The notes beneath the pieces were generated by a model that saw only the letters and a program-made list of their open reading frames with translations, made no database searches and was not told the DNA's origin. A stretch of 64,000 nt of DNA from Minisyncoccota bacterium (GTDB lineage: Bacteria; Patescibacteriota; Minisyncoccia; Phycocordibacterales; JABAAK01): NCBI GenBank assembly GCA_963668425.1, contig OY764332.1, forward strand, positions 595,896 to 659,895, given 5' to 3'. A program made the position numbers and the translations under genes. Of this stretch, positions 1 through 48,021 are shown in pieces; within the stretch, counting starts at the first letter, position 1; each line of letters begins with the position of its first letter.

Positions 1-136
1 TGCTCCCACTGCGCCACGAGATGCATGTGAAGTTCACTTTGCACACATAGATCTTGTCTTTAGCTTTTTTGCACCACGAGAGCTACGAGATACCGATCCA
101 ACCAGAGCACATAGTGACTATGAAGCAAAAAGAATC

Positions 137-2323: not shown

Positions 2324-2574
2324 AGATTTTAGTCGCTGAGCACTCTCTTTTATCGTAGGATTGCACAGTGATGGTGTAGTTGTTGCACACATCGTACTCC
2401 TGCCAACTTTATCTTCTTCTGTTTTTCTACTTTTTTGCCTCTTATTGTAGGCACTATGCTATAAAATTATCCTGTTGTGCCGGTATAAGATGGGTTGCAG
2501 TTATACACATGGTATATTTTACTGATTTTTTTATATAGGATACTGTTTATATATAAATTAACCATTACTATTAT

Positions 2575-3024: not shown

Positions 3025-3196
3025 TAAATAAGAGGATTGGTATTTCCTTTGTCATTCCACATCTGTTTTTTGACTTCTTGATTTACGGTGTGTTTGGCTC
3101 TTATTCTATTGTCACTTTTTTGTCCTTCAAGCGTATCGTTGCTATCTTTTCGTTTCTGTATCTGTTTTCACAGGTAGTTCGTATTCTTTATTTTCT

Positions 3197-4066: not shown

Positions 4067-4083
4067 ACAATGGTACTATAGCA

Positions 4084-4554
4084 TTATTTTCTGCCGTAGA
4101 GTCCCATATAAGATGCTTCTTTCAACGTGTGCTTCTTCATTGTCTGTCTTATCTGTTCAGAATTCGGCAATGGCTTTTTGAAAGTAAGTTCAGAATCAAG
4201 TGCGTATAGTGTAAAGTAGTACCGATGAGGATTGTCTCCTCGTGGGGGACAGGGTCCGCCGTATCCTGCTTTGCCCCAACTGTTCGCACCACTTTGAAAA
4301 GAATCTATGTTTTTTGTGTGTATCTCTTTTGTCTCCGGGGGAATGTTAAATAGCAGACAATGATCCCATGTATCACCATCGGTTGCATCGGGATCGTTTA
4401 TGATAAGTACCAGTGAAGCAGTTTTTGTTGGAATATTTTTTATGGTTATGGTTGGGATGCTGTCCTTTCCGTCACACGAGTGTCTGCTTGGTATGTCTCC
4501 TCTGTCTTTGAACTCTTGTATTTTTATTTCCATACTTATTTTGTAGTGTAGCAC
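4084..4554 (-). CDS. PEBP/YbhB/YbcL-family (phosphatidylethanolamine-binding protein-like)
   Basis: 156 aa with hallmark motif 'GGPCPPRGDNPHRYYFTLYALD' (GPxPPxGxHRYxFxLYALD). Confidence 0.7.
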   Translation of the reverse strand: MLHYKISMEIKIQEFKDRGDIPSRHSCDGKDSIPTITIKNIPTKTASLVLIINDPDATDGDTWDHCLLFNIPPETKEIHTKNIDSFQSGANSWGKAGYGGPCPPRGDNPHRYYFTLYALDSELTFKKPLPNSEQIRQTMKKHTLKEASYMGLYGRK

Positions 4555-4666
4555 GTTTTATTTTGTGTACATTATATGTATCTTAATGGGCAGGATGTGT
4601 ATTATTTCTTTGTTTAGTGCTAATTCTATGGTACAATTGCTTTTGTTTCATTTTAATGAATACAGC

Positions 4667-6067: not shown

Positions 6068-6220
6068 TGGCTGTTGTCATGTGTGTTTGATACGAGTAGG
6101 GGAGTTGTTATGATTTAGATATGTGGCGTGTAGCACGAAGGGAGAAGATGCTATTGTTTACGCACAGGGCACGTCGTAGAGCTATTTTCAGTTGTATACT
6201 GTAGTCGGTGGGTACTATGT

Positions 6221-6889
6221 ATGATGCTTCCTGATTTTTCAAAAAATTTTGCAAATCAACCATCGCCCACACCGTCTAATGTCCCTGGGTCTACTATGTC
6301 TGCTGATGTTAAAGGTGCTGTGCAACGGGAGAAGATGATGCCACAGGAGGATCGACCTGTTAAACAGATAGATATTAGATACATACTGGCGGTGTTATTG
6401 CTTACATTTGCCATTATTAGCGTCGGTGGCATGTTTGGTTTTAATGCGTATCTGGATAGAGAGATCGTTGCTATTGAGAGTGGTATTGATGCATTGGAGG
6501 AAACTATAAAAATAAATGATATCCTTGATCTTGCCACATTTAATAAACAGATAGGAACGTTACAAGACCTTACTATTTCTCGTGGAGGGTACTCATTGTT
6601 ACTCACTGAAGCATCAAAGCTGGTCATACCTGGTGTGCATTACAGCTCTGTCTCCATAGCAACAAGTGACGACGGGTACACCGTCGTTGTAAAAGGGGTT
6701 GCCGGTTCACTTGCCCGGTATCATCAACAAATACAGCAAGTTGAGGCGGCTGAAGGACTGTTGGCAGATGGTAATTTTGATGGGTACTCATTGCAGCATA
6801 GTGAAAGTGGCGGTACTACAGTACTATTCACTGTAAGCTTCCTTGTTGAAGCAGCAGAAGTTGGTGAAACTCTTAATAATGTATCGTAG
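6221..6889 (+). CDS. Type IV pilus assembly protein, PilN-like (bitopic)
   Basis: 222 aa, cytoplasmic N-term, single TM (ILAVLLLTFAIISVGG), periplasmic domain; first of three small bitopic ORFs directly upstream of pilB. Confidence 0.35.
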   Translation: MMLPDFSKNFANQPSPTPSNVPGSTMSADVKGAVQREKMMPQEDRPVKQIDIRYILAVLLLTFAIISVGGMFGFNAYLDREIVAIESGIDALEETIKINDILDLATFNKQIGTLQDLTISRGGYSLLLTEASKLVIPGVHYSSVSIATSDDGYTVVVKGVAGSLARYHQQIQQVEAAEGLLADGNFDGYSLQHSESGGTTVLFTVSFLVEAAEVGETLNNVS

Positions 6890-6895
6890 CATCAT

Positions 6896-7462
6896 ATGAA
6901 AAACGGTTTTTTATTTTCAGTGGTTTTTATTGCTATTGCTGTCGGGCTTTATTCACAGATCATAAAACCATGGCTTGGTGATGCTCTTACAAAATATAAT
7001 CAGATTGAAGATTTGCGATCGGTGTTTGCGGAGGGGCAAAATTTGCAGGTACGTCGTGATGCATTGCGATCTGAATTGAATACTGTTTCAGTACCCCGAC
7101 AAAATTTGATAAAAAATGCAGTCCCTGAGTATTCACCCGGCAATGTTATTTTGTTTCTTCTTGCTTTGGATTCGTTGGTAAAAGAGAGGAGTGGGTTGCC
7201 GCTTGACACGAAGTATACTGTTGGATCGGAGCGAGAAGGTGCTGAAGGGGTTGTGCTGTTGCCGATTCTATTTAATTTTGGAGAGATTTCATATGATGTT
7301 CTGCGCCAGTTTATACAAAACTTGCAACGATGGGAGCGTGGAGTGCGCATTCAGTCAATGCAGATAGGAGTGCCCGCGGATGAGGATTTGGCGGAGCGAG
7401 GTTTTGTTCAGGCATCTATTTCTATTGAAGCTCTGTTTTCTTCAGTATCTGACACCTTATAA
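6896..7462 (+). CDS. Type IV pilus assembly protein, PilO-like (bitopic, coiled coil)
   Basis: 188 aa, N-terminal TM then coiled-coil segment; operonic with 6221 and pilB. Confidence 0.35.
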   Translation: MKNGFLFSVVFIAIAVGLYSQIIKPWLGDALTKYNQIEDLRSVFAEGQNLQVRRDALRSELNTVSVPRQNLIKNAVPEYSPGNVILFLLALDSLVKERSGLPLDTKYTVGSEREGAEGVVLLPILFNFGEISYDVLRQFIQNLQRWERGVRIQSMQIGVPADEDLAERGFVQASISIEALFSSVSDTL

Positions 7463-7476
7463 TACCTATTAATATC

Positions 7477-8049
7477 ATGAACTCGGGAAAAGTAAAATCT
7501 GTATTCATTTTTATTATTCTGACAGGCATTTTGTTTTATTTTGGTGATTTGGTTGCGCGAGAATCAGCATTTAGCATTGAGGACACTGAACAGTCGGCAC
7601 GATTTCTTGATATCGTTGCTGTTTTGAATGATATTCAATTTGATCTTGACTTTGTTAACTCACTTGGTGATACAGCTATAAAAACTAACGTATACATTCA
7701 GCCACTGTCGTCTTCTGATGCTGGAAGAGATAACCCATTTAGGAAGTCAAGTCCGTCTGCACTCTTTGAGAGTCCGCAGGATGTATTCCCCAGTCAAGAA
7801 GAGGTTCGTGCGATATTTGAGGGTGAGGTGCCGCCTCCTATTCCGCCTGATCTCCGCTCGTTGTTAGAGGGACAGGATATCGTTGTGCCATCGGAAGGAG
7901 GGCAAGATGTCGGTCCGCCGGAAGAGTTGGTAAATCAGCTACAAGATGTCGGTCCGCCGGAAGAGTTGGTAAATCAGCTGCAAGATGTCGCCCCGCCGGA
8001 TGGGCAGGAGGAGTTATCTGATCCGTCATCAGCAACGTTAACACGCTAA
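7477..8049 (+). CDS. Bitopic pilus-operon protein with acidic proline-rich tail containing a perfect 13-aa tandem repeat
   Basis: 190 aa; N-terminal TM; 'DVGPPEELVNQLQ' twice, encoded by a perfect 39-bp tandem duplication at 7906-7983. Confidence 0.3.
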   Translation: MNSGKVKSVFIFIILTGILFYFGDLVARESAFSIEDTEQSARFLDIVAVLNDIQFDLDFVNSLGDTAIKTNVYIQPLSSSDAGRDNPFRKSSPSALFESPQDVFPSQEEVRAIFEGEVPPPIPPDLRSLLEGQDIVVPSEGGQDVGPPEELVNQLQDVGPPEELVNQLQDVAPPDGQEELSDPSSATLTR

Positions 8050-11978: not shown

Positions 11979-12106
11979 ACAGACAACACCTCGCCCGTTC
12001 AAAAATAAGATGGGCGTGCATACGCACCACCGTTTTATTTTTTCACTCTCTGGCTCGGTATGTCTGTTTCGCTTCGTTTTCCCACCTTTGTGTATACTAT
12101 ACGTAC

Positions 12107-12979
12107 ATGACAGTTAGCACCATAGAAAAAATTGATTTGTTCAATCAGGAGACCAAATCTAAGGTAAAAGCTGATGTTATTCTCGGAGATTGTCTTGATG
12201 TCTTAAAAAAGATGCCAGATGATTCTATTGACTTTGTTGTTACTTCACCCCCCTATGCAGATCAAAGAAAAAGTACCTATGGCGGAATTCATCCTAATGA
12301 ATATGTTGAATGGTTTTTACCGATCACGGCGGAACTCTTGCGGGTTTTGAATCCGAAAGGAACATTTGTCTTAAATATCAAAGAAAAAGTAGCAAATGGA
12401 GAGCGCCACACCTATGTTATGGAAATGATTATTGCAATGAGAGAACAGGGGTGGTTGTGGACAGAAGAATTTATTTGGCACAAAAAGAACTGTTTCCCGG
12501 GAAAATGGCCGAACCGTTTCCGTGATTCATGGGAACGACTCCTGCAGTTTAATAAATCAAAAAGTTTTAATATGTATCAGGATGAAGTGCGGGTACCTAT
12601 GGGTGACTGGGCAAAGACACGTTTAAAAAATCTTAGTGAAACAGACAAGAAAAGAGACAATTCAAAGGTCGGCAGCGGTTTTGGAAAAAATGTTTCTCAA
12701 TGGGTTGGTCGCGAGTTAGCGTATCCGACTAACGTATTAACGATAGCAACAGAAACTTCAAACAAAAAGCATAGTGCCGTTTTTCCTAAAGAATTACCGA
12801 GTTGGTTCATAAAATTATTTACTCAACCCGAAGATGTTGTATTAGATCCATTTTTGGGTTCTGGCACCACGTCAGTCGCCGCATTTCAGATTGATCGTAA
12901 CTCAATAGGAATTGAAATTCAAGAGGAGTATTGTCAGTTAGCGATTGATAATATAAATAAACAGAGGGAGCAGGCATGA
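12107..12979 (+). CDS. DNA methyltransferase, beta-class N6A/N4C (type II R-M)
   Basis: 290 aa from internal ATG (the listed ORF start at 11894 is an artefact of the upstream repeat); motif IV 'VVTSPPYAD' N-terminal, motif I 'DPFLGSGTT' C-terminal (beta-class order). Confidence 0.85.
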   Translation: MTVSTIEKIDLFNQETKSKVKADVILGDCLDVLKKMPDDSIDFVVTSPPYADQRKSTYGGIHPNEYVEWFLPITAELLRVLNPKGTFVLNIKEKVANGERHTYVMEMIIAMREQGWLWTEEFIWHKKNCFPGKWPNRFRDSWERLLQFNKSKSFNMYQDEVRVPMGDWAKTRLKNLSETDKKRDNSKVGSGFGKNVSQWVGRELAYPTNVLTIATETSNKKHSAVFPKELPSWFIKLFTQPEDVVLDPFLGSGTTSVAAFQIDRNSIGIEIQEEYCQLAIDNINKQREQA

Positions 12980-13737
12980 AAAAACTAAACTACAGAAAAC
13001 TAAACACCTTTATTGCATCAGATGTAATAAAACCCTTTTATGAAATGCGACTTGAACGACTTGAATCTGCAAAGTTGTCTGATATTTCAAAACAAAAAAA
13101 TCCATACCTCTTCAAAGCGAAGAATATTGAAACTGCCGGAGATCTAGCGAAAGGTATCCTTAACGCTTTTTTGTCATCACAGGAAGAAACAATGTTCGGT
13201 GACCTTATGGAGCGCCTTGCTGTCCATGTTTGTCACGAAGTTTTTGGCGGCAAAAAAGCAAAGGAAGGAAAATATAGGAGTGTCGATTTAATATTTGAAC
13301 GTGATAAAAAGATATATGTTGTTGGAATCAAATCCGGACCAAATTGGGGAAACTCTGATCAAGTGAGTATCCTCAGACGAAATTTAAAAACTGCCAAAAG
13401 CATGCTTCGCGCAAAAGTGGGAAAAAAGGAAATAGTATCTGTAAACGGATGTATGTATGGGCGTGACAATAAACCGCACAAAGTAAGCAAGAAAGATTCA
13501 GGCCTTAGTTATTATAAAATCTGCGGGCAGCCGTTCTGGGAACTCATTTCTGGAGATGATCAATTATACAAAAAGATTATTCAGCCACTCAGTAAAGAGG
13601 CAAAGAAAAAAGATGAGATCTTTAAAGATTTGTATTCCAAAAAAGTAAACGAAATGACGAAAGATACCGTTAATTGTTTTTATACTAACAATGATCTTGA
13701 TTGGGATAAAATTATTGAGTATGTTTCAAAAAAATAA
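12976..13737 (+). CDS. Putative cognate type II restriction endonuclease (uncharacterised family)
   Basis: 253 aa, start overlaps methyltransferase stop (ATGA coupling); size and position typical of a REase; no unambiguous PD-(D/E)XK motif assignable by eye. Confidence 0.45.
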   Translation: MKKLNYRKLNTFIASDVIKPFYEMRLERLESAKLSDISKQKNPYLFKAKNIETAGDLAKGILNAFLSSQEETMFGDLMERLAVHVCHEVFGGKKAKEGKYRSVDLIFERDKKIYVVGIKSGPNWGNSDQVSILRRNLKTAKSMLRAKVGKKEIVSVNGCMYGRDNKPHKVSKKDSGLSYYKICGQPFWELISGDDQLYKKIIQPLSKEAKKKDEIFKDLYSKKVNEMTKDTVNCFYTNNDLDWDKIIEYVSKK

Positions 13738-13740
13738 AGA

Positions 13741-14125
13741 CACCTTTGTTTTTTGATAAGTTGGTATATTATTCTCAGGCGATATTATCCGCGAGGAATA
13801 CACCCACAAGAAACAGAAACTCCTTGCTGAAAAAGCGGACACCAGAGAAAACCTGCGGAAGGACTTGGACGGTGCTGTTGCGTGGTTTGAACCCGCACTT
13901 TCCATACTTAACCAAGCAACTGCAATACCAAACGCTCTGAAAGATGCCGAACCTGCCGTTTTGGCGGATTGTTTCAGAGAGGTCGGTTTTGAACCCCACG
14001 CTTCGCGCCGAAACGATTGTATTCCAGCCACAGTGTGGTTGGAAAGCCCTGTATGACGGGCTGCGAAACAGCCCGTCTAAAAAGCCACATACGAGCGATA
14101 GCGAGTGTGTATCATTTGTTTCCTT
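13741..14125. other. GC-richer structured non-coding stretch (candidate ncRNA, unidentified)
   Basis: No convincing ORF; local GC visibly higher than surroundings; several strong hairpins, e.g. GACGGGCTG-CGAAA-CAGCCCGTC at about 14056-14078. Confidence 0.25.
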
Positions 14126-14475
14126 GAGTGCTCAGGAGAGGAATCTCACTTGACGGTGCCAGAACCGTTGAAAAAATGTCTGCGGGGCGCAGTATACATT
14201 TTTCCAACGGTTCTCGGCGCTCCGCTATCGCTCCGCTGACTCCATCCGTCAAGTTTTTGCTTCGCAAAAACCAATCGGCTATCGCCGACAGTTCTTGTTG
14301 TTTGTAAAGAGTATACTTGTTGTGTTTTGTGGTGGTGCTTGGTGTTTGGTGCTCAGGAGAGGACTTGAACCTCCATGGGATTGCTCCCACACGCCCCTCA
14401 AGCGTGCGCGTCTGCCCGTGCCGACAATCTTTGATTGTCGCTGATTATTAGTCGCCACCTTGGTGGCGGAGTCAT
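14126..14475. repeat. 350-bp tandem unit 1 (X repeat + spacer + pseudo-tRNA-Leu 3' half + two hairpins)
   Basis: Unit repeated head-to-tail at 14476-14825 with only a few substitutions; contains copy of tRNA-Leu positions about 22-3' end (14349-14412). Confidence 0.85.
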
Positions 14476-14825
14476 GAGTGCTCAGGAGAGGAATCTCACT
14501 TGACGGTGCCAGAACCGTTGAAAAAATGTCTGCGGGGCGCAGTATACATTTTTCCAACGGTTCTCGGCGCTCCGCTATCGCTCCGCTGACTCCATCCGTC
14601 AAGTTTTTGCTTCGCAAAAACCAATCGGCTATCGCCGACAGTTCTTGTTGTTTGTAAAGAGTATGCTTGTTGTGTTTTGTGGTGGTACTTGGTGTTTGGT
14701 GCTCAGGAGAGGACTTGAACCTCCATGGGATTGCTCCCACACGCCCCTCAAGCGTGCGCGTCTACCCGTGCCGACAATCTCTGATTGTCGCTGATTATTA
14801 GTCGCCACCTTGGTGGCGGAGTCAT
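14476..14825. repeat. 350-bp tandem unit 2
   Basis: Same as unit 1; pseudo-tRNA fragment at about 14699-14762; followed immediately by intact tRNA-Leu. Confidence 0.85.
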
Positions 14826-14828
14826 GAG

Positions 14829-14912
14829 TGCTCAGGAGAGGACTTGAACCTCCATGGGATTGCTCCCACACGCCCCTCAAGCGTGCGCGTCTACCAGTTC
14901 CGCCACCTGAGC
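14829..14912 (-). tRNA. tRNA-Leu (anticodon GAG), type II with long variable arm
   Basis: Reverse complement folds: acceptor GCTCAGG/CCTGAGC, anticodon stem CACGC/GCGTG with loop TTGAGGG, variable arm about 15 nt, T-arm GGTTCAAGTCC; CCA not encoded. Confidence 0.8.
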
Positions 14913-15154
14913 TGTATAGGTAGAGTATACCGCATTTGTCACTTCTGTATGGTATAGTATCAATAATGAGTTCGTTTTCTCGTGGCATCTTATTTTTGCG
15001 ATACCGATTTGTGTACTGTTTTGCGCGATTGTGTGGCAAGAATGTTGCTGATGCGACTGTTTCTGCGCGATGTGTATTGGCACATACAATCACCAAAGTA
15101 ATCAATACACGAACACAATCGTTGGCTAAACATATATGCACCAACTACTAATGA

Positions 15155-16357
15155 GTGAGTATGCAGGCAAGCCGTGAACAAGTACAAGCGTTATTTGAGC
15201 GAAACACCATTGCTGATGTCATTCCATCAAAGGAGGAATTTGAAAAACGATTAGTATCTGATAAGCCGTTTCATATCTATCTCGGCATAGATCCGACAGC
15301 AAAGCAAGTGCATTTGGGACACATTCAGAATATTCTGTTGCTTGAGGATTTGCGTAGGATGGGAGCAAAAATCACACTTCTTTTCGGATCATTCACTGGG
15401 TTGATTGGTGATCCGACCGGTAAAGAAAAAGCACGATCACAGTTAACGCGAGAACAAGTGCGGGAGCATATGCGCTCGTGGAAACGGCAGGTGTCTCCGG
15501 TGCTTGACTTGTCACTCTTGAGTAGTGCGCGAATTAACTATAATCATCGGTGGTTTGATACGGTTTCTTTGGAGCAATTTTTAACATTATTGCGAGAGAC
15601 AACTGTGCAACAGTTACTGGAACGAGACATGTTTCAAAAACGACTTGATTCCGGCAAACCATTGTATGCACATGAGATGATGTACCCGGTTTTGCAGGGG
15701 TATGATTCAGTTGCAATGCAGGTTGACGCGGAGCTGTGCGGAACAGATCAGACCTTTAATGCGTTGATGGGGCGAACAATGACGCAGCGGCACCTCAACA
15801 AAGAGAAATTTGTGGTAACCATGGAGTTGATACAAGCCGATGGGGTGCTGATGTCCAAAAGTGCCGGTACTGGTGTGTTTGTTGATATTGAACAGGGTGG
15901 TAATCACCGCATGTTTGGTGCGGTGATGGCGTTGCCTGATGGATTTATTGATCCGTTGTTTCGCGGATGTACCCGAATACCGATGGATGAGATCGCAAAG
16001 ATGGATGTGGGCGGAGGTGTGGCAACGAGAGATGCGAAACTGCGGTTGGCGCGGGAAATTGTCGGTATGTTTTGGGGGGTTGAGCAAGCAAAGGTAGCCG
16101 AGGAGAGTTATATCACACAATTTCGTGAAAAATCAGCACCGGACTCTGCATTGACCATTACTGTTAGTGAGGAGGTGTTGCTACTTGACCTTGTGGTTGA
16201 GCATACCGGCATTTCTCGGTCAGAGGCAAAGCGAAGGTTTGCACAAGGAGCAGTTTCCATTGATACTAAAAAAATAACAGACATCACTCATGCACTTACA
16301 AAGAGTAGTGCCGAGCGGGTGTTACGTGTTGGTCGGAAGGTGTTCCGAGTGCAGTAG
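15155..16357 (+). CDS. tyrS: Tyrosyl-tRNA synthetase
   Basis: 400 aa; HIGH-type motif 'AKQVHLGH', KMSKS-type 'LMSKSAGT', C-terminal S4 RNA-binding domain; GTG or nearby ATG start. Confidence 0.85.
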   Translation: MSMQASREQVQALFERNTIADVIPSKEEFEKRLVSDKPFHIYLGIDPTAKQVHLGHIQNILLLEDLRRMGAKITLLFGSFTGLIGDPTGKEKARSQLTREQVREHMRSWKRQVSPVLDLSLLSSARINYNHRWFDTVSLEQFLTLLRETTVQQLLERDMFQKRLDSGKPLYAHEMMYPVLQGYDSVAMQVDAELCGTDQTFNALMGRTMTQRHLNKEKFVVTMELIQADGVLMSKSAGTGVFVDIEQGGNHRMFGAVMALPDGFIDPLFRGCTRIPMDEIAKMDVGGGVATRDAKLRLAREIVGMFWGVEQAKVAEESYITQFREKSAPDSALTITVSEEVLLLDLVVEHTGISRSEAKRRFAQGAVSIDTKKITDITHALTKSSAERVLRVGRKVFRVQ

Positions 16358-16373
16358 GGTATACTACTGGTAA

Positions 16374-17213
16374 ATGCATACTAAAAAAGTAGTAAAAAGA
16401 AATGGAGTTGTGGTAGATTTTGATAAGAAAATCCTTGAGCGCTCATTGCTTCGCTCCGGTGCGGAGCGAGACCTTGCACGTGATATTACGATTGACATAG
16501 AGCAATTGATTCGGGATGGTGACTCAACAGATATGGTGTATAAAAAGGCGTTTGAAATGCTATATGAGCGGGCACGATCAGTGGCAATGCGGTACTCATT
16601 GAAAAAAGCGTTATTTGGTTTGGGTCCGACAGGGTTTCCGTTTGAAAAATTTGTTGCTGAACTATTTCAGCGGAAAGGGTATGCTACGCAAACTAATGTG
16701 CATTTACGTGGTGGCTGTATTGCTCATGAAGTTGATGTATTAGCAATCAGATCAGAGCGGGTTGCGATGGAAATCAAATTTCATAATGATATGCATATTC
16801 GGTCAGATGTAAAATCAGTGCTGTATGTGAAAGCGCGGTTTGATGATCTGCTGGGGCGGACTGTCTCAACATTTTCATTTCGAAAAAAGGGATCAGTTGA
16901 CAAGTGTATTTTAGTTACTAATACAAAGTTTACTAAAAATGCACTCGCCTACGCTAAATGTGCCGGTGTGTCCTTGCTCGGTTGGGGGTATCCGTTTCGT
17001 GATAATCTGCAATCCCTCATACAAAAAGTTGACGCACATCCAGTTACCTGTATTCCATCGCTTTCACCCTCACACATGCGTGCTTTGTTTGCTGAAGGAG
17101 TTGTAACGTGTAGAGGGTTGCTTGAACGGGATGATTTGCTACGCTCACTGCCGAATACTGATACTATTGTCTCTGAGGCAAAGATGCTGTGTCGACCAGA
17201 TGCTCGGCGATAA
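16374..17213 (+). CDS. ATP-cone domain protein fused to Mrr-like restriction-endonuclease (PD-(D/E)XK) fold
   Basis: 279 aa; N-terminal NrdR-like ATP-cone (VVKRNGVVVDFDKKIL), then 'FEKFVAELFQRKGY…HEVDVLAI…MEIKF' D…ExK signature. Confidence 0.5.
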   Translation: MHTKKVVKRNGVVVDFDKKILERSLLRSGAERDLARDITIDIEQLIRDGDSTDMVYKKAFEMLYERARSVAMRYSLKKALFGLGPTGFPFEKFVAELFQRKGYATQTNVHLRGGCIAHEVDVLAIRSERVAMEIKFHNDMHIRSDVKSVLYVKARFDDLLGRTVSTFSFRKKGSVDKCILVTNTKFTKNALAYAKCAGVSLLGWGYPFRDNLQSLIQKVDAHPVTCIPSLSPSHMRALFAEGVVTCRGLLERDDLLRSLPNTDTIVSEAKMLCRPDARR

Positions 17214-17223
17214 TTTTTATACT

Positions 17224-17994
17224 ATGAATATATACGCAACACGTAAAAGAAATATTTTTGATCCAGCAAGTGACGTGCCATTTGCGCTCTCACGTAGCAA
17301 GATAGATCTGTTTTTTCAATGTCCGCGATGCTTTTATCTGGACAGACGGCTAGGTGTCGCGCCGCCGCGTGGATTTCCATTTAATCTGAATGATGCGGTT
17401 GATTTGTTATTCAAAAAAGAGTTTGACACCTATCGGGTAAAAAAAGAACCTCACCCGCTGGTTGCTGCCGCTGGTTTATCACTAGTGCCGATGCAGCATG
17501 CACAACTGGAAGTATGGCGCAATCCGTTTGAGGGGGTGCGATATCATCATCAGCCATCAAACTTTATCGTGTTTGGTGGGGTAGATGATGTGTGGAGTGA
17601 CACGGACGGAGTGGTTACCGTTGTTGACTATAAGGCAACCAGCAAAGACAAGGAGGTAACTATAGATGCGCCGTGGCAGGATGCTTATAAGCGGCAATTG
17701 GAAGTGTACCAATGGTTGTTTCGTAACAACGGCTTTACTGTTTCTGATACAGGATATTTTGTATACACAAATGGAGATAGATCAGCTGAAGGTTTTCATG
17801 ACACCTTGCGATTCAAGACAAAGCTCATTCCATATGATGGTTCTGACAGTTGGATTGAAGATGTGTTGATGCGGGCAAAGGCAACTTTGATGAGTGATGC
17901 AATACCAGAGGCGGGAAGGTGGTGTGATTTTTGTCCCTACCGAGAAGCAGCAGGGAAGTCGTTTCGGGCGCATGCAGAAGAAACCACCTCATGA
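17224..17994 (+). CDS. Cas4-like/RecB-family PD-(D/E)XK nuclease with four-Cys cluster
   Basis: 257 aa from internal ATG; 'VVDYKATSK' (DxK), QxxxY-like 'EVYQWL'; Cys N-terminal 'QCPRC' and C-terminal 'RWCDFCPY' as in Fe-S Cas4/AddB nucleases. Confidence 0.55.
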   Translation: MNIYATRKRNIFDPASDVPFALSRSKIDLFFQCPRCFYLDRRLGVAPPRGFPFNLNDAVDLLFKKEFDTYRVKKEPHPLVAAAGLSLVPMQHAQLEVWRNPFEGVRYHHQPSNFIVFGGVDDVWSDTDGVVTVVDYKATSKDKEVTIDAPWQDAYKRQLEVYQWLFRNNGFTVSDTGYFVYTNGDRSAEGFHDTLRFKTKLIPYDGSDSWIEDVLMRAKATLMSDAIPEAGRWCDFCPYREAAGKSFRAHAEETTS

Positions 17995-22712: not shown

Positions 22713-23141
22713 ATGAATAGTAAAAAAGATATTTTTACTTTGTTAGCGATTCCGGAGTCGTCGGTCTCCTTGCGGTTTGTTCGTGCTGGTGGTCCAGGGG
22801 GGCAAAAGGTGAATAAAACTTCTTCAGCGGTTCGCCTTTTTTTTAATATCCGCTGTTTGGATGAGTCGGTACAAAAACGATTGTCTCGTGTCCCTAAGGC
22901 AAAATTGAGTAAGAATGGGACGTTGCTTATCGTTGCGCGAGAGTATCGTTTACAGCAGCAAAATATAGCCGCCGCATACCAGCGTCTTGCTGACATGCTT
23001 GCAATTGCTCGACGGAAACCAAAAGTGCGTATTCCCACTAAGCCCTCTCAGGCATCGCATGAGCGTCGTTTAACCAAGAAAAAGCAACATAGTCAAAAAA
23101 AGGCGGATAGGAAGTTTGGCTCTGTTTCGCTGTATACGTAG
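22713..23141 (+). CDS. arfB: Alternative ribosome-rescue factor ArfB (peptidyl-tRNA hydrolase, GGQ domain + basic tail)
   Basis: 142 aa; 'AGGPGGQKVNKTSSAVRL', then 'EYRLQQQN…' and K/R-rich C-terminal tail, closely matching E. coli YaeJ/ArfB architecture. Confidence 0.8.
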   Translation: MNSKKDIFTLLAIPESSVSLRFVRAGGPGGQKVNKTSSAVRLFFNIRCLDESVQKRLSRVPKAKLSKNGTLLIVAREYRLQQQNIAAAYQRLADMLAIARRKPKVRIPTKPSQASHERRLTKKKQHSQKKADRKFGSVSLYT

Positions 23142-25226: not shown

Positions 25227-25251
25227 TAATGATGCTTTTGCCGGTGTTTAT

Positions 25252-28261
<3,010 letters not shown>

Positions 28262-28264
28262 ATC

Positions 28265-29605
28265 TTGTGTTTTGGCGAGGCGGGTGATATACTGTTCAGC
28301 ACCGTGAAAAGAAAAACAGACAATTGGCCGAAAAGGGATATTTTGGCCAGTAAACTTAGATTTGATACAAAGAACCCTCGGTTTCAGCATGAGGTGGAAG
28401 GTTCGTTAAGTCAAAAGCAGATACATGACCGGTTAATGAAGGATTTTGATGCAATAGAACTATCTGAGCAAATGAGATCTGATGGCTTTCACAGCAGCGA
28501 GATATTGATTGTGCTTAAGGAAGGAGATGTTTTTGTTGTTTTAGATGGTAATAGGCGACTTGCTGCTTTTCGGCACGCTCATACATTAGGATGGATTCCT
28601 AATAGTCGCAACACTTTGCCTGTTACTGTGGCACCTTCAAGAGAAGAGGCAGATAAGGTAATAATTGTTAAGCATGTTGGCGCTCTTAAGAAAAATTGGA
28701 CCACTCCAAATCAGTTAAATAAGTTGCGAGAGATAGTTAGTCGTTCTCCTGGCAAAACAATAAAAGAAATAGTGGAGAAGTATCCTTCTCTTGGTTCAGA
28801 AAAAGCGGTTACAAGAAGCTTGCTAGATTTAGAAATATATAATTTGCTGATTAAAAGTGATTGGCTCAATTCTGACGATAAGGGTAAGGTGATGAAGAGA
28901 GGTATTAATATGATACACCGTTTTTACACTTCAAAGTTGGGGAAGAAGTATTTTAATTTGAATGATTTATCGTATCCTTTTGAAAAAAACAGATTGCATG
29001 GAATTATTAACGGTCGTGAGAGCCAACACATTGTTAGGGACTATATTGTGAGAAGAACATCAGCACAAATAAAAGCACCTGAAATTGAAGATATATTCAG
29101 GTTTTTATTTGATAAGCCGAATAAACCAAAAAAGAAGATTGCTCAAGCAGAAAAGAGGGCAACAGATAGAAAAAACCTTATTCCGGCTGGGTGTAGAATG
29201 GTGGTGAAGCATGGTAGGGTATCTGATATATACTTAGAGTTGCGGGATTGCATACAGGTTAATGAAGCGCCAAACGCGGTTGCCGCACTGTTTCGGATTT
29301 TTATGGAGTTGAGTTTGGATTACTATATAGAGAAAAATTTTTTGTTGAATAAAAAAAGTGCTTATGCGAGTATTAAGCAAAAGATATCTTTGGTGACTGG
29401 TTATATGGAGGAGAGGGGTGTTGCCAAAACGGAAGATTTGAAAAACGTCAGAAGAGTTGGGTCAGAGAAAAACAGTTATTTGGGTGTTGAAGTTTTTAAT
29501 GAATATATGCACTCATTGAAAACTAATCCTGAGCCGTCTGATTTGAAAACAAAATGGGATAACCTTGAGGGCTTTTTTGAGATACTTTGGAGTGATGTAT
29601 CATAA
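28265..29605 (+). CDS. ParB/Srx-fold (DUF262-like) nuclease-domain protein, about 446 aa
   Basis: N-terminal 'SEILIVLKEGDVFVVLDGNRRLAAF' (DGxxR ParB-like NTPase/nuclease motif); unknown C-terminal half; TTG/GTG start uncertain; 6-bp gap to Dam methyltransferase. Confidence 0.5.
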   Translation: MCFGEAGDILFSTVKRKTDNWPKRDILASKLRFDTKNPRFQHEVEGSLSQKQIHDRLMKDFDAIELSEQMRSDGFHSSEILIVLKEGDVFVVLDGNRRLAAFRHAHTLGWIPNSRNTLPVTVAPSREEADKVIIVKHVGALKKNWTTPNQLNKLREIVSRSPGKTIKEIVEKYPSLGSEKAVTRSLLDLEIYNLLIKSDWLNSDDKGKVMKRGINMIHRFYTSKLGKKYFNLNDLSYPFEKNRLHGIINGRESQHIVRDYIVRRTSAQIKAPEIEDIFRFLFDKPNKPKKKIAQAEKRATDRKNLIPAGCRMVVKHGRVSDIYLELRDCIQVNEAPNAVAALFRIFMELSLDYYIEKNFLLNKKSAYASIKQKISLVTGYMEERGVAKTEDLKNVRRVGSEKNSYLGVEVFNEYMHSLKTNPEPSDLKTKWDNLEGFFEILWSDVS

Positions 29606-29611
29606 AGGTGT

Positions 29612-30430
29612 ATGAAGACGCCGCTTAGGTATCCGGGAGGGAAGGCGAAGTTTTTTAATTATTTTGTTGCACTTTTGGAAAGTAAGAATGTGCAAAATCC
29701 AATATTTGTTGAGCCATATTGCGGTGGGGCAGGAGCTGCAATCAAACTTTTGTTGACTGGTAAGGTGAAAGCGATCTATTTAAATGATGCTGATAGGAGT
29801 ATTTATGCGTTTTGGCATGCTGTTCTTAATGATTGTGATCGATTGGTGAGGAAGATGTATAGGACACCAGTAACGCTTGATACATTTGACAAGCAAAAAG
29901 ATGTGCAAGCAAGGAAAGGCGCAGTAAGTTTATTTGATTTAGGTTTTTCAACCTTGTTTCTAAACCGAACTGCGTTTTCTGGTGTTATTTCTGGAGGTCC
30001 GATTGGTGGGAGAAAACAAACTAGTAAATATAGGTTGGATTGCAGATTTAATAAAAAAAATATTGCAGAAAGGATTAGAGATATAGCAAGGCATAAAGGG
30101 AGTATTGAAATTTTTAACAAGGATGCGGAGGATTTTTTGAGGTTGTCGAGAATAGAAAAATTGCCGAAAGAGAAAACTATCTTTTATATGGATCCGCCAT
30201 ACTTTGAAAAAGGTGTTCTCTTATATCAAAATAATTACCTTTTGGAGGATCATAAAAGGATTGAAAGATTTTTGAGGAATTATGATAAAAATGTCTATGT
30301 TTCTTATGATGATTGTAAGGAGATAAGAAAGATTTATGCTGTGTGGAACAAGAACAGGGTTAAGGTTCCACATTGTGCCGGGAGGTTTAAGATGGGTCAA
30401 GAAGTCATTTTGTGCAAGAGTGGTGTATAG
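29612..30430 (+). CDS. dam: Dam-family (D12 class) DNA N6-adenine methyltransferase
   Basis: 272 aa; 'RYPGGK', 'EPYCGGAGAA' (FxGxG-like), 'DPPY' catalytic motif. Confidence 0.8.
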   Translation: MKTPLRYPGGKAKFFNYFVALLESKNVQNPIFVEPYCGGAGAAIKLLLTGKVKAIYLNDADRSIYAFWHAVLNDCDRLVRKMYRTPVTLDTFDKQKDVQARKGAVSLFDLGFSTLFLNRTAFSGVISGGPIGGRKQTSKYRLDCRFNKKNIAERIRDIARHKGSIEIFNKDAEDFLRLSRIEKLPKEKTIFYMDPPYFEKGVLLYQNNYLLEDHKRIERFLRNYDKNVYVSYDDCKEIRKIYAVWNKNRVKVPHCAGRFKMGQEVILCKSGV

Positions 30431-30513
30431 TGAGAGGCTTTATTGTAAGTGATGCTTTGTATTTGATGCCTCTTATGTATTGATTGTGGTGATGTGATTT
30501 GTTGGTGTAGTGA

Positions 30514-31419
30514 GTGGGTATGTGTTACACTGTCTTTGAATTGCATATGCAAAAAGAAGAACGAGAAAGGAGGGTACAGGAACTTGAAGCGGCGATGGGG
30601 TTACCTGATTTTTGGGAGGATAAGGAGGAGGCGCAACGCATGGTGCGTGAATATAATGAGTTAAAAGAGGTCGGATCGGTGCGGGAATTTTTTCCGGCGG
30701 TTCTACATATCATTGCGGGAGTTGGTGGAGATGATGCGGAAGATTTTGCCCGTATGCTTGCCGCTATGTATCAGCGATATGCTGAGCATAAGGGGTTTGT
30801 TGTGTACGAGGTGGATCGGCATGAGACATCGCGGGGTGGGTATAAAAATATTAGTATTGAGATTGCAGATAAGCAGGCATATGAGCTATTGAAACATGAA
30901 ACCGGTGTACATCGGCTTGTTCGTATTTCTCCGTTTAATGCAAAGAAGCAACGACATACTTCATTTGCATTGGTGGATGTTACTCCCAAATTGCCGCCAT
31001 TACAGGAAGTAGATATTCCGGAGCGTGATATTGAAATTGACTTTACAAACTCAAGTGGCCCGGGTGGGCAGAATGTAAACAAGCGAGAAACAGCAGTGCG
31101 AGTTAAGCATATTCCGTCTGGTATTACTGTTCGGGTTGAGCGAGAGCGATCGCAGGCACAGAACAAAGAGGTTGCGCTGGAGATATTGCGTGGAAAACTT
31201 TTCGTGTTAATGAAACAGAAACGTGTGGAAACATTGCGTGATCTTTCGTTTGACAAAACCACTGATATTGAGTGGGGGAATCAAATTCGCTCGTATGTGT
31301 TGCACCCGTATAAAATGGTGAAAGATTTGCGTGTCAATTATGAAGAACGTAATCCAGAAGAGGTTTTTGATGGTAAATTGGATGGCTTTATAGAGGCATT
31401 GAAAGGGTATACGGAATAG
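30514..31419 (+). CDS. prfB: Peptide chain release factor 2 (N-terminal domain strongly reduced)
   Basis: 301 aa; 'SPF' tripeptide (RISPFNAKK), 'GGQ' (SSGPGGQNVNKRE); GTG (30514) or ATG (30520) start. Confidence 0.85.
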   Translation: MGMCYTVFELHMQKEERERRVQELEAAMGLPDFWEDKEEAQRMVREYNELKEVGSVREFFPAVLHIIAGVGGDDAEDFARMLAAMYQRYAEHKGFVVYEVDRHETSRGGYKNISIEIADKQAYELLKHETGVHRLVRISPFNAKKQRHTSFALVDVTPKLPPLQEVDIPERDIEIDFTNSSGPGGQNVNKRETAVRVKHIPSGITVRVERERSQAQNKEVALEILRGKLFVLMKQKRVETLRDLSFDKTTDIEWGNQIRSYVLHPYKMVKDLRVNYEERNPEEVFDGKLDGFIEALKGYTE

Positions 31420-32259: not shown

Positions 32260-32491
32260 TCCCGGATATTGGTCACGAACTCTTTGTAATGTGATTTCAT
32301 CGTGTGTTTCTGGTGTTCTGTTTAGTCCGTATGGTGGCTCGGTGACAACGATGTAATACAGCCAGAGAAACCCAATGACTAGTACGAATATATACGGCAT
32401 TTTCATATGGGCAGTGTACCATTATTGTGATTTTTTTTGGGGTAATCCACAATCTGCCTATTGACTGAAAAAAGCGTGTTATATTTAAGGG

Positions 32492-36069: not shown

Positions 36070-36403
36070 TGGGTGTTATGTCAGTAAGTGTAAGAAGTTT
36101 TTTTGGTATACTGTATGCAGGAGGTGATACTTATATGCAGAGAGTGTGTGTATGTCCACATTGTACGGCAGATGTAGAGGAAGCAGTGTGGTATTTTGGA
36201 CTCTTTTGTGAGTATGACGTAGAAGAATTTCGTCCGATTGCTGCTGCCCCAACGTTACATCTTGGTCTTGGTATTGTTGCGAGACAAGAAGAATTGGACT
36301 GCTTGTGGCATGACGGAGATGAAGATATATCTTAAAGGCAATACAAAAACCCAAAAAATTCACATAGAATTTTTTGGGTTTTTTAGAAAGTTATTGGTCG
36401 TGG

Positions 36404-37018: not shown

Positions 37019-37721
37019 ATACTGATTCTTGTGTTTTCACTTGTTTACTTGTATTGGTTTTATCAGACCATGAGATGCACGGTACTGCCGTTGCATACTG
37101 CACTTCGGTGTCTTCCTGCGGAATAATGATATGTAATGTGGTAGTGAATTCATTATTTCTTTTTGGTGCATTGCCGTCACATGTGTTTGTATTTTTTCCA
37201 CGAATATTGTTTGTTGTCGCTATGCCGGCAATGGCTCCGTTATATATTTTGTTGCCCTGGCCAGTTGTGCCACACTCCCCTTGTGCAGTTTTGTCATCTC
37301 CATTGAAGCACTCAACGGTGCAGTAGTTTTTATGATTTCCTAGTATCCAATCATCGGCGTATAGTATGCAGTTGTTATATTCATTTTTAGATTGTGGATC
37401 ATAGAGTGTGTCAAACCAGTCGCCTCCGTTTGGATCAAGTATGTCCGAGTCCCGTGTGTATCGCACATATTCTGTAATTTCTTGTGCTAATAATCCCGCT
37501 GTAACTCTATTTTCTGTCAAAGCATTTCTTATAAGGTAATCTGAGACAATAGAAATCGGCAGAAACCCGATGATCGTAATGACCGCTATTGCCACTAACA
37601 CCTCAACCAGTGTAAAACCTGCGTGTTTGTTATTCTTATGTACGTGCCACGTCAGAGAGTTCTTGTCGTGTAAGGAGATCATACCCGTGTGATGCCAGTA
37701 TAGCAAGAAAATAGAGGGCAT
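36993..37721 (-). CDS. Type IV pilin/pseudopilin with prepilin-type N-terminal cleavage/methylation domain
   Basis: Class III signal 'KHAG|FTLVEVLVAIAVITII'; start codon uncertain (several in-frame ATG). Confidence 0.6.
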   Translation of the reverse strand: MPSIFLLYWHHTGMISLHDKNSLTWHVHKNNKHAGFTLVEVLVAIAVITIIGFLPISIVSDYLIRNALTENRVTAGLLAQEITEYVRYTRDSDILDPNGGDWFDTLYDPQSKNEYNNCILYADDWILGNHKNYCTVECFNGDDKTAQGECGTTGQGNKIYNGAIAGIATTNNIRGKNTNTCDGNAPKRNNEFTTTLHIIIPQEDTEVQYATAVPCISWSDKTNTSKQVKTQESVFEWIQKRR

Positions 37722-41824: not shown

Positions 41825-43021
41825 TTATATTTGTGATGATATGGAATATATTGGAATAATAACTGAGCCAATTAATAGTCCGACCCCAACCCCCAAAAAC
41901 ACAATAATTGTTGGTTGAATTAAGTCAAATAGAGTGTCAATGGTATTACGAAGTTGTTTTTCATACAAATCAGCGATAGTTTCAAGCATGCGTTGCAGTT
42001 CTCCTGCCTCTTCACCTACTCGTATGATTTGTGCGATATTTTTGCCGATGTACTTTCTTCTGGATATTGTACTGGATAGTTTTATTCCTTGTTGTACTTC
42101 TATGCTCATGTCTCGTACCAACTTTTGGTACACTGTATTGACCATACCCCGACTTAGTATTTGGAGTGATGTGACAATTGGCACACCGCTTCCAAGCATG
42201 ACACTTAGGTTGCGAGTGAAGCGTACCAAGAAGAATTCCCGAAACATGTTCTTTAGCAGTGGCGTGTCCACAAGAAAATTATCAAATGCTTCTCGTCCAT
42301 CTTTAGTTTGTATATAGTAAAGCAGACCCACGATACTACCGATGAATGTGACAAGGATAATAATAATATTATTTTTTAGAAAATAACTAGTGGCAATCAC
42401 TATTTTAGTAATGAGTGGCAACTCAGCATTGGATTGCGTGAGAATTGTAGAAATTTGTGGAATAACTGTTGTCATGATTAGTCCCATTACCAAAAAAAAC
42501 ATTACTATAACAAACGTCGGATAGGTTAGTGCCTTACGCATTTTTGCAGACATGTCAGCACTACGTTCTACATGATCGGCAAGGTATGAAAATGATCGCG
42601 GAAGTGTCCCTGATTGTTCACCGATTGCAACAATGGATACAAAAAACTCACCGAATATGTTCTGGTGTTTCAATAACGCCTTCTCAACAGATAGCCCCTG
42701 CTCAATACTTTTTACAATGTCAATTAAAACACTTTGAAAGTACTTGTTTTGCATGTTTTCAGAAACCAAACTAAACGCTCGCAGAGCTGATATTTCCGCT
42801 GTGAAAAGAGTGGCAATTTGACGAGAGAAGATAACCAAATCTTTTTTGCGTACCTTTTGAAAAATATTTATATCTAATATGTCTTTTGACTCGTGTTCCA
42901 GCGAAAGTACCGTATATCCCCTGTCAAGCAATAACGTAATCGCATTGGTGCGACTTGTCGCTTCCAATTGCCCGGAAAACTCTTTTCCCTCTTTGTCTAT
43001 GACCGTGTATAAAAAAATCAT
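41825..43021 (-). CDS. pilC: Type IV pilus inner-membrane platform protein PilC (GspF family)
   Basis: 398 aa; two T2SSF domains, three TM segments. Confidence 0.85.
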   Translation of the reverse strand: MIFLYTVIDKEGKEFSGQLEATSRTNAITLLLDRGYTVLSLEHESKDILDINIFQKVRKKDLVIFSRQIATLFTAEISALRAFSLVSENMQNKYFQSVLIDIVKSIEQGLSVEKALLKHQNIFGEFFVSIVAIGEQSGTLPRSFSYLADHVERSADMSAKMRKALTYPTFVIVMFFLVMGLIMTTVIPQISTILTQSNAELPLITKIVIATSYFLKNNIIIILVTFIGSIVGLLYYIQTKDGREAFDNFLVDTPLLKNMFREFFLVRFTRNLSVMLGSGVPIVTSLQILSRGMVNTVYQKLVRDMSIEVQQGIKLSSTISRRKYIGKNIAQIIRVGEEAGELQRMLETIADLYEKQLRNTIDTLFDLIQPTIIVFLGVGVGLLIGSVIIPIYSISSQI

Positions 43022-46737: not shown

Positions 46738-48021
46738 TTAGTTTATATACCATTTTTCCAGGTGTTTTTTGAAAACGCCGGACGTTGTCCACAGGAAGAG
46801 CCGTGTTAACACATATGCAGAGAGCATGCTTACAAGCACGCCGATAATAAATGCAAATGCAAACCCTTTGATTATAGAGGTGCCGAACCAAAAGAGCAAA
46901 AAGGCGATGATCATGCTGGTTAGATTGGCATCTCGGATTGCCACCCATGCACGTGCACAGCCATTTTTTATTGCCTTTGTGCGTGATTCTCCCCGTTTGA
47001 CTTCTTCTCGCATCCGTTCAAAAATGAGAACATTTGCGTCAACTGCAAATCCGATAGACATAATAAAGCCGGATAAACCTGCTGCTGTCAGCACAATCGG
47101 TACCCCTTTAAATATTGCCAACACAATCACGCAGTATACCGTTAGTGCTACTATTGCGACTATGCCGACAAAGCGGTACACCGCTAAGAAGAGAAACGCA
47201 ATGATGATGAGTGCAATTAGTCCAGCAAACACACTTTTTTCTGACACTTCTGCGCCCAAGGAGGGGTTTACTGTTAACGTCTCGGATAGTTCAATTGGTA
47301 CCGGTAACGCACCGAGATTTAGTCCGTTTACTAACTCTTTTGCTGATTCTAGGGTAAAGTTTCCCTGTATTTGTGTGGTGCCGCCGGTGATTGGCTCGGA
47401 AATGGTAGGAGATGAGATGACATTGCCGTCAAGGAAAATCATCAATCGTCTTCCAGTGTTCTCTCGTGTTATATCAGCAAACATTTTCCCGCCTTCGCGG
47501 TTAAAGTGGATTACTACTACTGGTTCGTTGGTCAGTGTACCACCGATACCCGGTAGAAATTGTACCTCCGCGGATGTAATGTGTGTTCCCTGCAGATTGG
47601 TATCTTGTATCTCTACTGGTTCGTCAGTCAGTATTTTGAATTCAAGATATGGTGTTTCTCCTATTGCCTTAGTTGCTTCGTTCGTGTTTGTTACTCCGGG
47701 TAATTCAACAACTAGACGGTGTGCGGCAGGATTGCCGCCAATTGCCAGTCCAGTAACAGTATAGACATTTGGCTCTGATACCCCAAGTGCATTTACCCGT
47801 TGTTCAATCACCCGCTGTAGTGCAGTCATTCGTCCTGAAATCTCTTCTGGAGGTACTTCCGATACGTCGGCAGTGTAGGTTACTTGTGTACCACCTGCGA
47901 GATCTAGTCCGAAAGAGAACGGAAATTGCTCTATGTCATACACGTATAAAACCGCCAATGCAGCGGTAAGCGCGATAATGAGAGAGCTGAGTATCCATGG
48001 TGAGACGCCTTTTTTCCTCAT
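46738..48021 (-). CDS. secD: Protein translocase subunit SecD
   Basis: 427 aa; N-terminal TM, periplasmic domain, C-terminal 6-TM SecD_SecF region. Confidence 0.85.
   Translation of the reverse strand: MRKKGVSPWILSSLIIALTAALAVLYVYDIEQFPFSFGLDLAGGTQVTYTADVSEVPPEEISGRMTALQRVIEQRVNALGVSEPNVYTVTGLAIGGNPAAHRLVVELPGVTNTNEATKAIGETPYLEFKILTDEPVEIQDTNLQGTHITSAEVQFLPGIGGTLTNEPVVVIHFNREGGKMFADITRENTGRRLMIFLDGNVISSPTISEPITGGTTQIQGNFTLESAKELVNGLNLGALPVPIELSETLTVNPSLGAEVSEKSVFAGLIALIIIAFLFLAVYRFVGIVAIVALTVYCVIVLAIFKGVPIVLTAAGLSGFIMSIGFAVDANVLIFERMREEVKRGESRTKAIKNGCARAWVAIRDANLTSMIIAFLLFWFGTSIIKGFAFAFIIGVLVSMLSAYVLTRLFLWTTSGVFKKHLEKWYIN

Follow-up and report, generated by a model that had tools for sequence, protein, structure and literature searches.

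A predicted two-gene PD-λ-5-type anti-phage defence operon in the ligA-prfB spacer of a small-genome Kaiserbacteria-like bacterium

What are two closely spaced genes doing between the DNA ligase gene ligA and the release factor gene prfB of a bacterium whose genome measures about 0.7 Mb? The question is raised by positions 28304-30430 of the window, that is, the whole stretch of 64,000 nucleotides analyzed here, which belongs to a contig of 696,550 bp (OY764332.1) from a Minisyncoccota bacterium whose closest named ligA relatives are Candidatus Kaiserbacteria. Gene A of this segment encodes a ParB-like protein, and gene B, directly downstream, encodes a predicted adenine DNA methyltransferase. 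With a probability of about 0.85, we read the segment as a predicted two-gene anti-phage defence operon of the PD-λ-5 type, horizontally acquired and located in the ligA|prfB spacer of a small-genome, Kaiserbacteria-like member of the Patescibacteria or Candidate Phyla Radiation (CPR). Systems of this kind are already known and named (PD-λ-5), and the locus adds a predicted new member.

Identity of the gene pair

Both gene products were recognized by the defence models of PADLOC. Protein A matched PDLC03998 (PD-Lambda-5_A) with E=8.5e-55 and 184 bits, as well as 19 further PD-Lambda-5_A models; the match to PDLC03998 was split into an N-terminal and a C-terminal stretch, and the sequence is distant. 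Protein B matched PDLC04018 (PD-Lambda-5_B; E=7.4e-96, 319 bits), with residues 2-270 aligned on positions 5-271 of the 291 in the profile. In addition to these matches to hidden Markov models (HMMs), the two genes are adjacent and co-directional, and they show the PD-λ-5 architecture of a ParB and HEPN protein together with a D12-class methyltransferase. Pfam and NCBIfam scans of protein A gave no match at E<=1, and therefore its assignment required PADLOC, profiles, and structure. Protein A is not the product of a chance open reading frame (ORF), because an exhaustive search with its family profile found 2,798 clusters (50% identity) at E<=1e-30, besides 5,993 at E<=1e-10 and 8,258 at E<=1e-3.

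The PD-λ-5 prototype is a protein pair of E. coli ECOR7 (RCQ13837.1 and RCQ13838.1) that came from a functional selection (Vassallo et al. 2022, PMC9519451), is entered there as 'ParB/HEPN, methyltransferase', and has been validated in E. coli (PMC9519451, Tables S1/S3). It acts on nine of ten test phages, T-even phages most, and its cloning required a Δmrr host (PMC9519451). This conflict with Mrr implies active adenine methylation, and the authors of the prototype read the system as restriction-modification combined with abortive infection (RM+Abi) (PMC9519451). Their HHpred table assigned protein A to ParBc (96.4%), with weak matches to DUF4145 (35.6%) and HEPN_RiboL-PSP, and protein B to MethyltransfD12 (99.9%) (PMC9519451); our domain calls for A and B agree with this table. 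A previous sequence-only reading of this DNA had described the locus as a restriction-modification-like (R-M-like) defence module, a description borne out by the PD-λ-5 models and by the protection that the prototype confers on E. coli (PMC9519451).

The mechanically listed ORF1 spans 28265-29605 of the forward strand (446 aa) and begins with TTG, which is too early. In the homologues P0002 (432 aa) and P0003 (433 aa), an ATG aligns with the GTG at position 28304 of the window, and a second database gene call of protein A (P0053) likewise has 433 aa. Homologues thus support the GTG at 28304 as the real start, and gene A, the PD-λ-5_A homologue, is placed at 28304..29605 on the forward strand (433 aa) by PADLOC, alignments, and the database gene call. 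Another public (NCBI/ENA) call, P0001, has 389 aa counted from Met58 and loses the D21..N24-P25-R26 box; an NCBI-type call of this length therefore cuts off the conserved N-terminus of A, and the right product has 433 aa. Looking up the 389-aa protein by exact match gave no record. Gene B, the PD-λ-5_B homologue, occupies 29612..30430 of the same strand (272 aa).

The frame of 446 aa proposed by the sequence-only reading thus exists on the forward strand, with its start to be moved to 28304 and its product shortened to 433 aa. The ParB/Srx-type motif noticed in its N-terminal part, VFVVLDGNRRLAAF, is present at residues 76-89 of A (DGNRRLAAF at nt 28544-28570), and the spacing of 6 bp to the methyltransferase gene is as described, with B starting at 29612 after the ORF1 stop at 29605.

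The product of gene B is shown by its sequence features to be a predicted intact D12-class N6-adenine DNA methyltransferase. It matched PF02086 (E=4.9e-21, 76.1 bits against a cutoff of 22) and the adenine methyltransferase of PDB entry 7m6b (1.7e-12), and it carries the catalytic DPPY at residues 194-197 (nt 30191-30202) and a motif I variant, EPYCGGAGA (nt 29711-29737). The PF02086 match and the DPPY motif agree with the earlier assignment of B to the Dam-family (D12-class) N6-adenine methyltransferases. In the TIGR00571 (dam) model, B scored 65.6 bits, under the cutoff of 114.85, and it is not called a Dam (GATC) orthologue. As a separate observation, the strongest palindrome avoidance in the window was found for TCGA, GGCC, and AGCT (observed/expected 0.22, 0.26, and 0.44, respectively), with no obvious tie to a D12-class methyltransferase; such avoidance suggests that restriction systems of the TaqI, HaeIII, and AluI types, with no link to the module, exert pressure on this DNA or did so in the past.

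Domain anatomy of protein A

An AlphaFold2 model of protein A was built on an alignment of 49 sequences (alignment A1) and reached a mean predicted local distance difference test (pLDDT) value of 89.3. In this model, three predicted domains are fused in protein A: an N-terminal ParB/Srx domain, a helical domain like that of ParB, resembling a helix-turn-helix (HTH) domain, and, after a linker, a C-terminal domain of the HEPN fold. The ParB/Srx-fold domain covers residues 1-126 (28304..28681, forward strand, as are all parts of A) and contains D21..N24-P25-R26 (nt 28364-28381), G82-N83-R84-R85 (within nt 28544-28570), and H124. The all-helical middle domain, residues 134-269 (28703..29110), matches the HTH DNA-binding domain of ParB in its position and contains R206. 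It is followed by a low-confidence, lysine-rich linker at residues 270-300 (29111..29203; pLDDT <50 at residues 275-283), which varies in length and sequence in the alignment, and by the HEPN-fold domain at residues 301-433 (29204..29602), with FRIFMELS at nt 29291-29314 and YMHS at nt 29504-29515. Across the 49 sequences, N83-R84-R85 within (E/D)GNRRLAA, H124, W132, R206, and H403 were invariant, and D21, N24-P25-R26, E312-L313, R331, E335, and W418 nearly so.

The N-terminal half of protein A pointed to ParB by profile and by fold. Against the PDB, the A profile found ParB only (4umk, 1.4e-5), with the invariant G82-N83-R84-R85-L86-A87 (GNRRLAA) aligned on GERRLRA. Foldseek placed approximately 240-265 N-terminal columns of A on CTP- or CDP-bound ParB (6sdk, 7bnk), Noc (7nfu), Spo0J (1vz0), and KorB (8qa8), and this alignment spans the nucleotide-binding N-terminal domain and the helical DNA-binding region next to it. 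Comparison of the ParB/Srx fold gave 9.0 for SbnI and for KorB, 8.8 for pNOB8 ParB-N (187 residues aligned) and for PadC, and 8.3 for sulfiredoxin. Thus, the N-terminal domain of A combines the ParB/Srx α/β fold with a GxxR/arginine box (GERRxRA in ParB).

The C-terminal domain forms a helical bundle of the HEPN fold, as seen by fold comparison of the model; its sequence profile alone found nothing meaningful in the PDB, and the HEPN relationship is seen through fold comparison only. Among the HEPN-clan families of Pfam, DUF4145 recurred weakly at the sequence level (4 of 34 members, best E 0.025). The predicted structure contains a conserved R/E/H triad (R331, E335, and H403), in which H403 lies in the context [N/H/D]-x3-H-[N/S/D] and R331 (FRxFxELS) lies 72 residues upstream, with E335, on a different helix. 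The C-terminal 250 residues, which the sequence-only reading had left as unassignable, can therefore be assigned to the ParB-like helical domain, the linker, and the HEPN-fold domain. The Pfam families that it had named for checking, DUF262, DUF4357, and ParBc, were not found in the window protein, which had no Pfam match; GmrSD_N (DUF262) matched weakly in 8 of the 49 relatives of A.

Insertion site, linkage, and distribution

The module was found at the same ligA|prfB junction in two other genomes, L001 (847 kb contig) and L002 (647 kb contig). In L091 (ligA 84-85% identical) and L093 (77%), the junction is empty and ligA is followed by prfB-bacA-greA. In L092 (ligA 80% identical), the junction holds another gene of 314 aa (L092:8045-8989, reverse strand) without a Pfam or PADLOC match, which may be uncharacterized hotspot cargo or a defence candidate. 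Given the empty junctions and the other gene in L092, the pair is a genuine insertion between ligA and prfB, as the earlier reading had proposed. The housekeeping ParB present in all relatives without the methyltransferase, which the same proposal had set against itself, was not seen, as A is absent from the sisters and almost never stands apart from B.

The ligA|prfB junction accumulates R-M-type cargo. In L001, an additional gene between B and prfB (L001:10150-11451) encodes a protein in which an N6_N4 DNA methyltransferase is fused to an HNH nuclease (PF01555 1.8e-50; HNH 7e-11), and this gene is preceded by the promoter element TGTTACACTG, as is prfB in the window. In a neighbour-joining tree of ligA, the module-bearing genomes grouped together with L091 as their sister and with L092 and L093 outside, which fits one gain in the ancestor of the carrier clade, or a loss in L091. 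Among the three carriers, the flanking proteins were 86-89% identical, compared with 66-70% for A and 76-84% for B, and in all three genomes A and B were AT-richer than the flanks. In the window, the GC content is approximately 0.47 in ligA, falls to 0.35-0.39 over A and B (approximately 0.37 for the module), and goes back up in prfB (0.45-0.47 for the flanking genes). Judged from the sequences, this divergence and AT-richness look like the usual picture for fast-evolving, horizontally derived defence genes.

Gene B came directly after A, in the same orientation, in all eight metagenomic contexts (L001-L008), in 76 of the 77 GTDB species-representative loci with enough sequence downstream of A (exception, L053), and in all seven IMG/VR viral loci carrying the HEPN domain. 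The order of A and then B is thus shown to be conserved over many phyla and on phages, and the linkage is near-obligate. Relatives of A were present in at least 440 GTDB species representatives of Bacteroidota, Patescibacteria, Proteobacteria, Acidobacteriota, Chloroflexota, and Planctomycetota, as well as one archaeon. The top 150 clusters of the A profile had lengths of 432-514 aa, with one exception of 801 aa, and nearly all were matched full-length. Elsewhere, the contexts of the pair are typical for defence genes or mobile elements: A and B adjoin the phage integrase in Marinobacter phage AS1, immediately follow a Type I hsdMSR operon in L007 and L008, and lie beside a Tsp45I R-M system and a serine recombinase in L006 and beside PycTM, PLD, and DUF3800 genes in L004. 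On L003, a CPR-like contig of 1.1 Mb, the pair stands between two giant genes (1-7890 and 12062-17335), the called products of which have 7,861 and 9,096 aa, neither with a Pfam match.

These results would extend an E. coli defence system, validated by experiment but unsolved in its mechanism, to the ultra-small genomes of Patescibacteria/CPR, in which the module appears to have been retained through speciation at one chromosomal hotspot; a literature search found no report of PD-λ-5 in CPR bacteria. They also indicate that the PD-λ-5 A family is large, with approximately 2,800 clusters at 50% identity, and uniform in its architecture.

The left flank of the module is ligA (NAD-dependent DNA ligase; 26267..28261, forward strand, start approximate), identified by Pfam DNA_ligase_aden (3.6e-84) and by OB, HHH, and BRCT domains, with its N-terminus aligned with that of L001 ligA. 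The right flank is prfB (peptide chain release factor 2-like, 290 aa; 30547..31419, forward strand, ATG start), identified by Pfam PCRF (2e-39) and RF-1 (5e-34) and by alignment to prfB of L001 and L002. This RF2-like product of approximately 290 aa is encoded in a single frame without a programmed +1 frameshift; within the PCRF profile, its match is confined to the C-terminal half (positions 102-194). The window also contains prfA at 25246-26202 and, upstream, a separate gene for a 142-aa RF-1-domain (ArfB-like) protein at 22713-23141.

The right junction with the upstream region of prfB (30431..30546, forward strand) keeps ancestral ligA-prfB intergenic sequence and contains TGTTACACTG at 30523-30532. 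Its local alignment to the empty-site intergenic sequence of L091 scored 51, compared with 16.9±3.2 for shuffled sequences, and none of 500 shuffles reached 51; the resemblance is partly due to a shared genome-wide promoter consensus, TGnTAyACTG. We also looked for a target-site duplication, and the similarity of the left and right junctions was not significant (286 of 500 shuffles reached the score). Because the junctions are not significantly alike and the promoter consensus explains much of the empty-site resemblance, a target-site duplication is not claimed.

Upstream of gene A, a promoter-like extended -10 element, TGATATACTG, is located at 28285..28294 (forward strand), 10 nt before the GTG, leaving a very short leader. 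For the consensus TGnTAyACTG, 1.0 occurrence was expected in the window and 8 were counted (0 of 100 shuffles), at 26240-26249, 28285-28294, 30523-30532, 36104-36113, and 42126-42135, and on the reverse strand at 32412-32421, 37696-37705, and 47533-47542. Upstream of ligA, A, and prfB, 10-17 nt separate it from the start codon. The element is probably the extended -10 promoter of the host, used genome-wide with very short or leaderless 5' untranslated regions.

Mechanism, rival explanations, and known systems

For A and B together, we infer an R-M-like scheme with a possible abortive-infection arm, after the reading of the E. coli prototype by Vassallo et al. Protein B would mark host DNA as self by methylating adenine in a specific motif. 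Protein A would bind DNA via its ParB-like helical domain, and the nucleotide-binding pocket formed by the NPR and GNRR boxes of its ParB domain may serve as a switch or clamp dependent on a nucleoside triphosphate (NTP), or as a nickase; NTPase and nickase activities are both known from ParB/Srx proteins, as summarized in PMC12839542 and PMC10853773. On unmethylated, invading DNA, A would act by its HEPN-fold domain, through RNA cleavage leading to growth arrest, and/or by nuclease or nicking activity of the ParB domain.

A more specific version of this scheme is speculative, and we regard it as rather unlikely. Protein A would then be a ParB-type clamp gated by NTP (possibly CTP), which loads onto or slides on DNA without the N6-methyladenine set by B, and engagement of the N-terminal domains would switch on a non-canonical HEPN-fold effector using the R331/E335/H403 site in place of Rx4-6H. 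If true, this would be a new restriction logic, leading from a nucleotide-switch sensor to an RNA-level or non-nucleolytic shutdown, packed in one polypeptide and one methyltransferase and kept even in CPR genomes of approximately 0.7 Mb. In either version, the structural dissection of A yields mutational targets, namely the NPR and GNRR boxes of the ParB N-terminal domain, the helical domain, and the HEPN-fold R/E/H triad replacing Rx4-6H.

Several points weigh against the identification as PD-λ-5 and the scheme drawn from it. The kinship to the E. coli prototype was established through PADLOC HMMs and not through direct alignment to the prototype sequence, and a literature search for the mechanism of PD-λ-5 gave census-type mentions only, with no mechanism among them. 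In protein A, the hydrolysis motif of ParB Box III (ENLQR) is not recognizable, and there is no conservation where ENIQRE of 4umk aligns. The canonical Rx4-6H motif of HEPN ribonucleases (RNases) is absent from the C-terminal domain, and RNase activity of A is therefore not assured. The module contains no classical restriction nuclease fold (PD-(D/E)xK, HNH, GIY-YIG, or PLD), as A shows ParB/Srx and HEPN folds only. In addition, restriction-site avoidance in the 64-kb window gives no target for B, with GATC and CATG both at 0.74 of expectation.

The missing Rx4-6H motif would suit a plain Type II-like R-M system, in which A is an unconventional DNA endonuclease that cuts unmethylated sites with its ParB-domain nuclease, the HEPN fold is structural or serves dimerization, and no abortive-infection arm exists. 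The tight linkage of A to the methyltransferase gene points in the same direction, as does the ability of ParB/Srx proteins to nick DNA, for which PMC12839542 cites Maindola 2014 and Johnson 1999. However, E312, R331, E335, and H403 are invariant or nearly so even between remote phyla, as would be expected if the HEPN-fold domain held an active site or bound a ligand, and the prototype is most effective against T-even phages, the DNA of which withstands the majority of R-M systems, in line with the RM+Abi reading of its authors (PMC9519451). We therefore hold a plain R-M system to be unlikely, yet deserving of attention.

The pair might instead be a selfish, toxin-antitoxin-like addiction module, in which the toxin A is blocked by the methylation of B and persistence results from post-segregational killing and not from phage defence. 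Addiction-like behaviour is known for R-M pairs, and the module is compact, mobile, AT-rich, located in a hotspot, and retained through speciation in genomes of approximately 0.7 Mb. Nevertheless, addiction is compatible with defence, the neighbours of the pair elsewhere are defence genes, and the prototype protects against nine of ten phages (PMC9519451), so that addiction as the sole explanation appears improbable. The sequence-only reading had also allowed for modification-dependent action, that is, a Type IV, GmrSD-like enzyme with a functionally unrelated methyltransferase gene next to it. This alternative draws on the weak GmrSD_N matches within the A family, but membership in DUF262/GmrSD is weak, the window protein lacks a DUF1524/HNH nuclease domain as well as any Pfam match, and the near-obligate A→B linkage (approximately 80 loci) would be unexpected for an enzyme whose targets would include DNA modified by the methyltransferase encoded next to it; we consider it very improbable. 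A housekeeping ParB-type partition or nucleoid protein beside an orphan Dam-like regulatory methyltransferase is scarcely credible, even though the fold of A, its HTH region included, is close to that of ParB, Noc, and KorB, and the pair occupies the same locus in three genomes. The pair is absent from L091 and L093 despite otherwise identical synteny, no ParA gene adjoins it, A carries the HEPN-fold fusion, and the module is AT-rich and evolves faster than its flanks; moreover, A and B match PADLOC defence models, and B falls below the Dam cutoff.

Read as a PD-λ-5-type system, the module resembles the prototype in its two adjacent, co-directional genes, with a ParB/HEPN protein of approximately 430-500 aa followed by a D12-class adenine methyltransferase. 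It differs in location, since the prototype resides in an E. coli prophage, whereas the module of the window is chromosomal, between ligA and prfB of a CPR host. With the CTP-dependent clamps ParB, Noc, and KorB, protein A shares the N-terminal fold, a GxRR arginine box (GNRR versus GERR), an NPR box resembling ParB Box I (xPR), and the adjacent helical DNA-binding region. Unlike these proteins, A has no recognizable Box III, no ParB C-terminal dimerization domain, no adjoining ParA, and no known parS, and it is fused to a HEPN fold and coupled to a methyltransferase. The identification of A as a chromosomal ParB was rejected on the missing Box III and ParA partner, the HEPN C-terminus, and its absence from the sisters.

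GmrSD, BrxU, and SspE, which combine a DUF262 ParB-like NTPase with a DUF1524 HNH nuclease, likewise carry a ParB/Srx-superfamily N-terminal domain in a defence protein (PMC12839542). The effector domain of A is a HEPN fold in contrast to their DUF1524/HNH, and its pairing with a methyltransferase implies protection by modification instead of modification dependence; a GmrSD-type Type IV identity was rejected because A has no DUF1524/HNH domain. A classical Type II pair was also rejected, as the methyltransferase is present but A has no restriction endonuclease fold. PD-T4-2 (DUF262 and HEPN; Vassallo 2022, Table S1) is similar in having a ParB-superfamily component and a HEPN component. It differs in lacking a methyltransferase and in its ParB-type domain, which matches DUF262 strongly (99.7% in HHpred) and is not ParBc-like.

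EcoprrI, a Type Ic R-M system, and the anticodon nuclease PrrC form an RM+Abi pairing that comprises four genes, the Type I enzyme being separate. This pairing, mentioned in PMC10799925, shares with the module a concept in which self and non-self are told apart by modification and a HEPN-type suicide RNase is coupled to this distinction. The module of the window would compress all of this into one effector polypeptide and one methyltransferase, and its HEPN motif is non-canonical.

Finally, a P2-like phage variant (Wphi gp98; L-413C; vB_EcoM-12474III gp04-gp06) shares the ParB N-terminal domain and helical module of A (hhalign 99.5% over A residues 11-232). In these P2-like phages, the protein with the shared module has 372 aa and is encoded after the portal gene Q, and its partner gene, of 330 aa, is unrelated; in Escherichia phage vB_EcoM-12474III (L009), the region is 5009-8045. 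Like the PD-λ-5 module, the variant lies near a DNA methyltransferase gene, here in a phage defence hotspot; unlike it, the variant has a different C-terminus without a HEPN domain, and its methyltransferase is encoded on the opposite strand and is unrelated to B. Reading these three genes as a split PD-λ-5 was rejected, because the second gene has no HEPN similarity and the methyltransferase is unrelated. By its sequence, the P2-like variant appears to be a separate system that uses this N-terminal module, and the combination of this shared module with a different partner and a different methyltransferase suggests that it is a reusable sensor.

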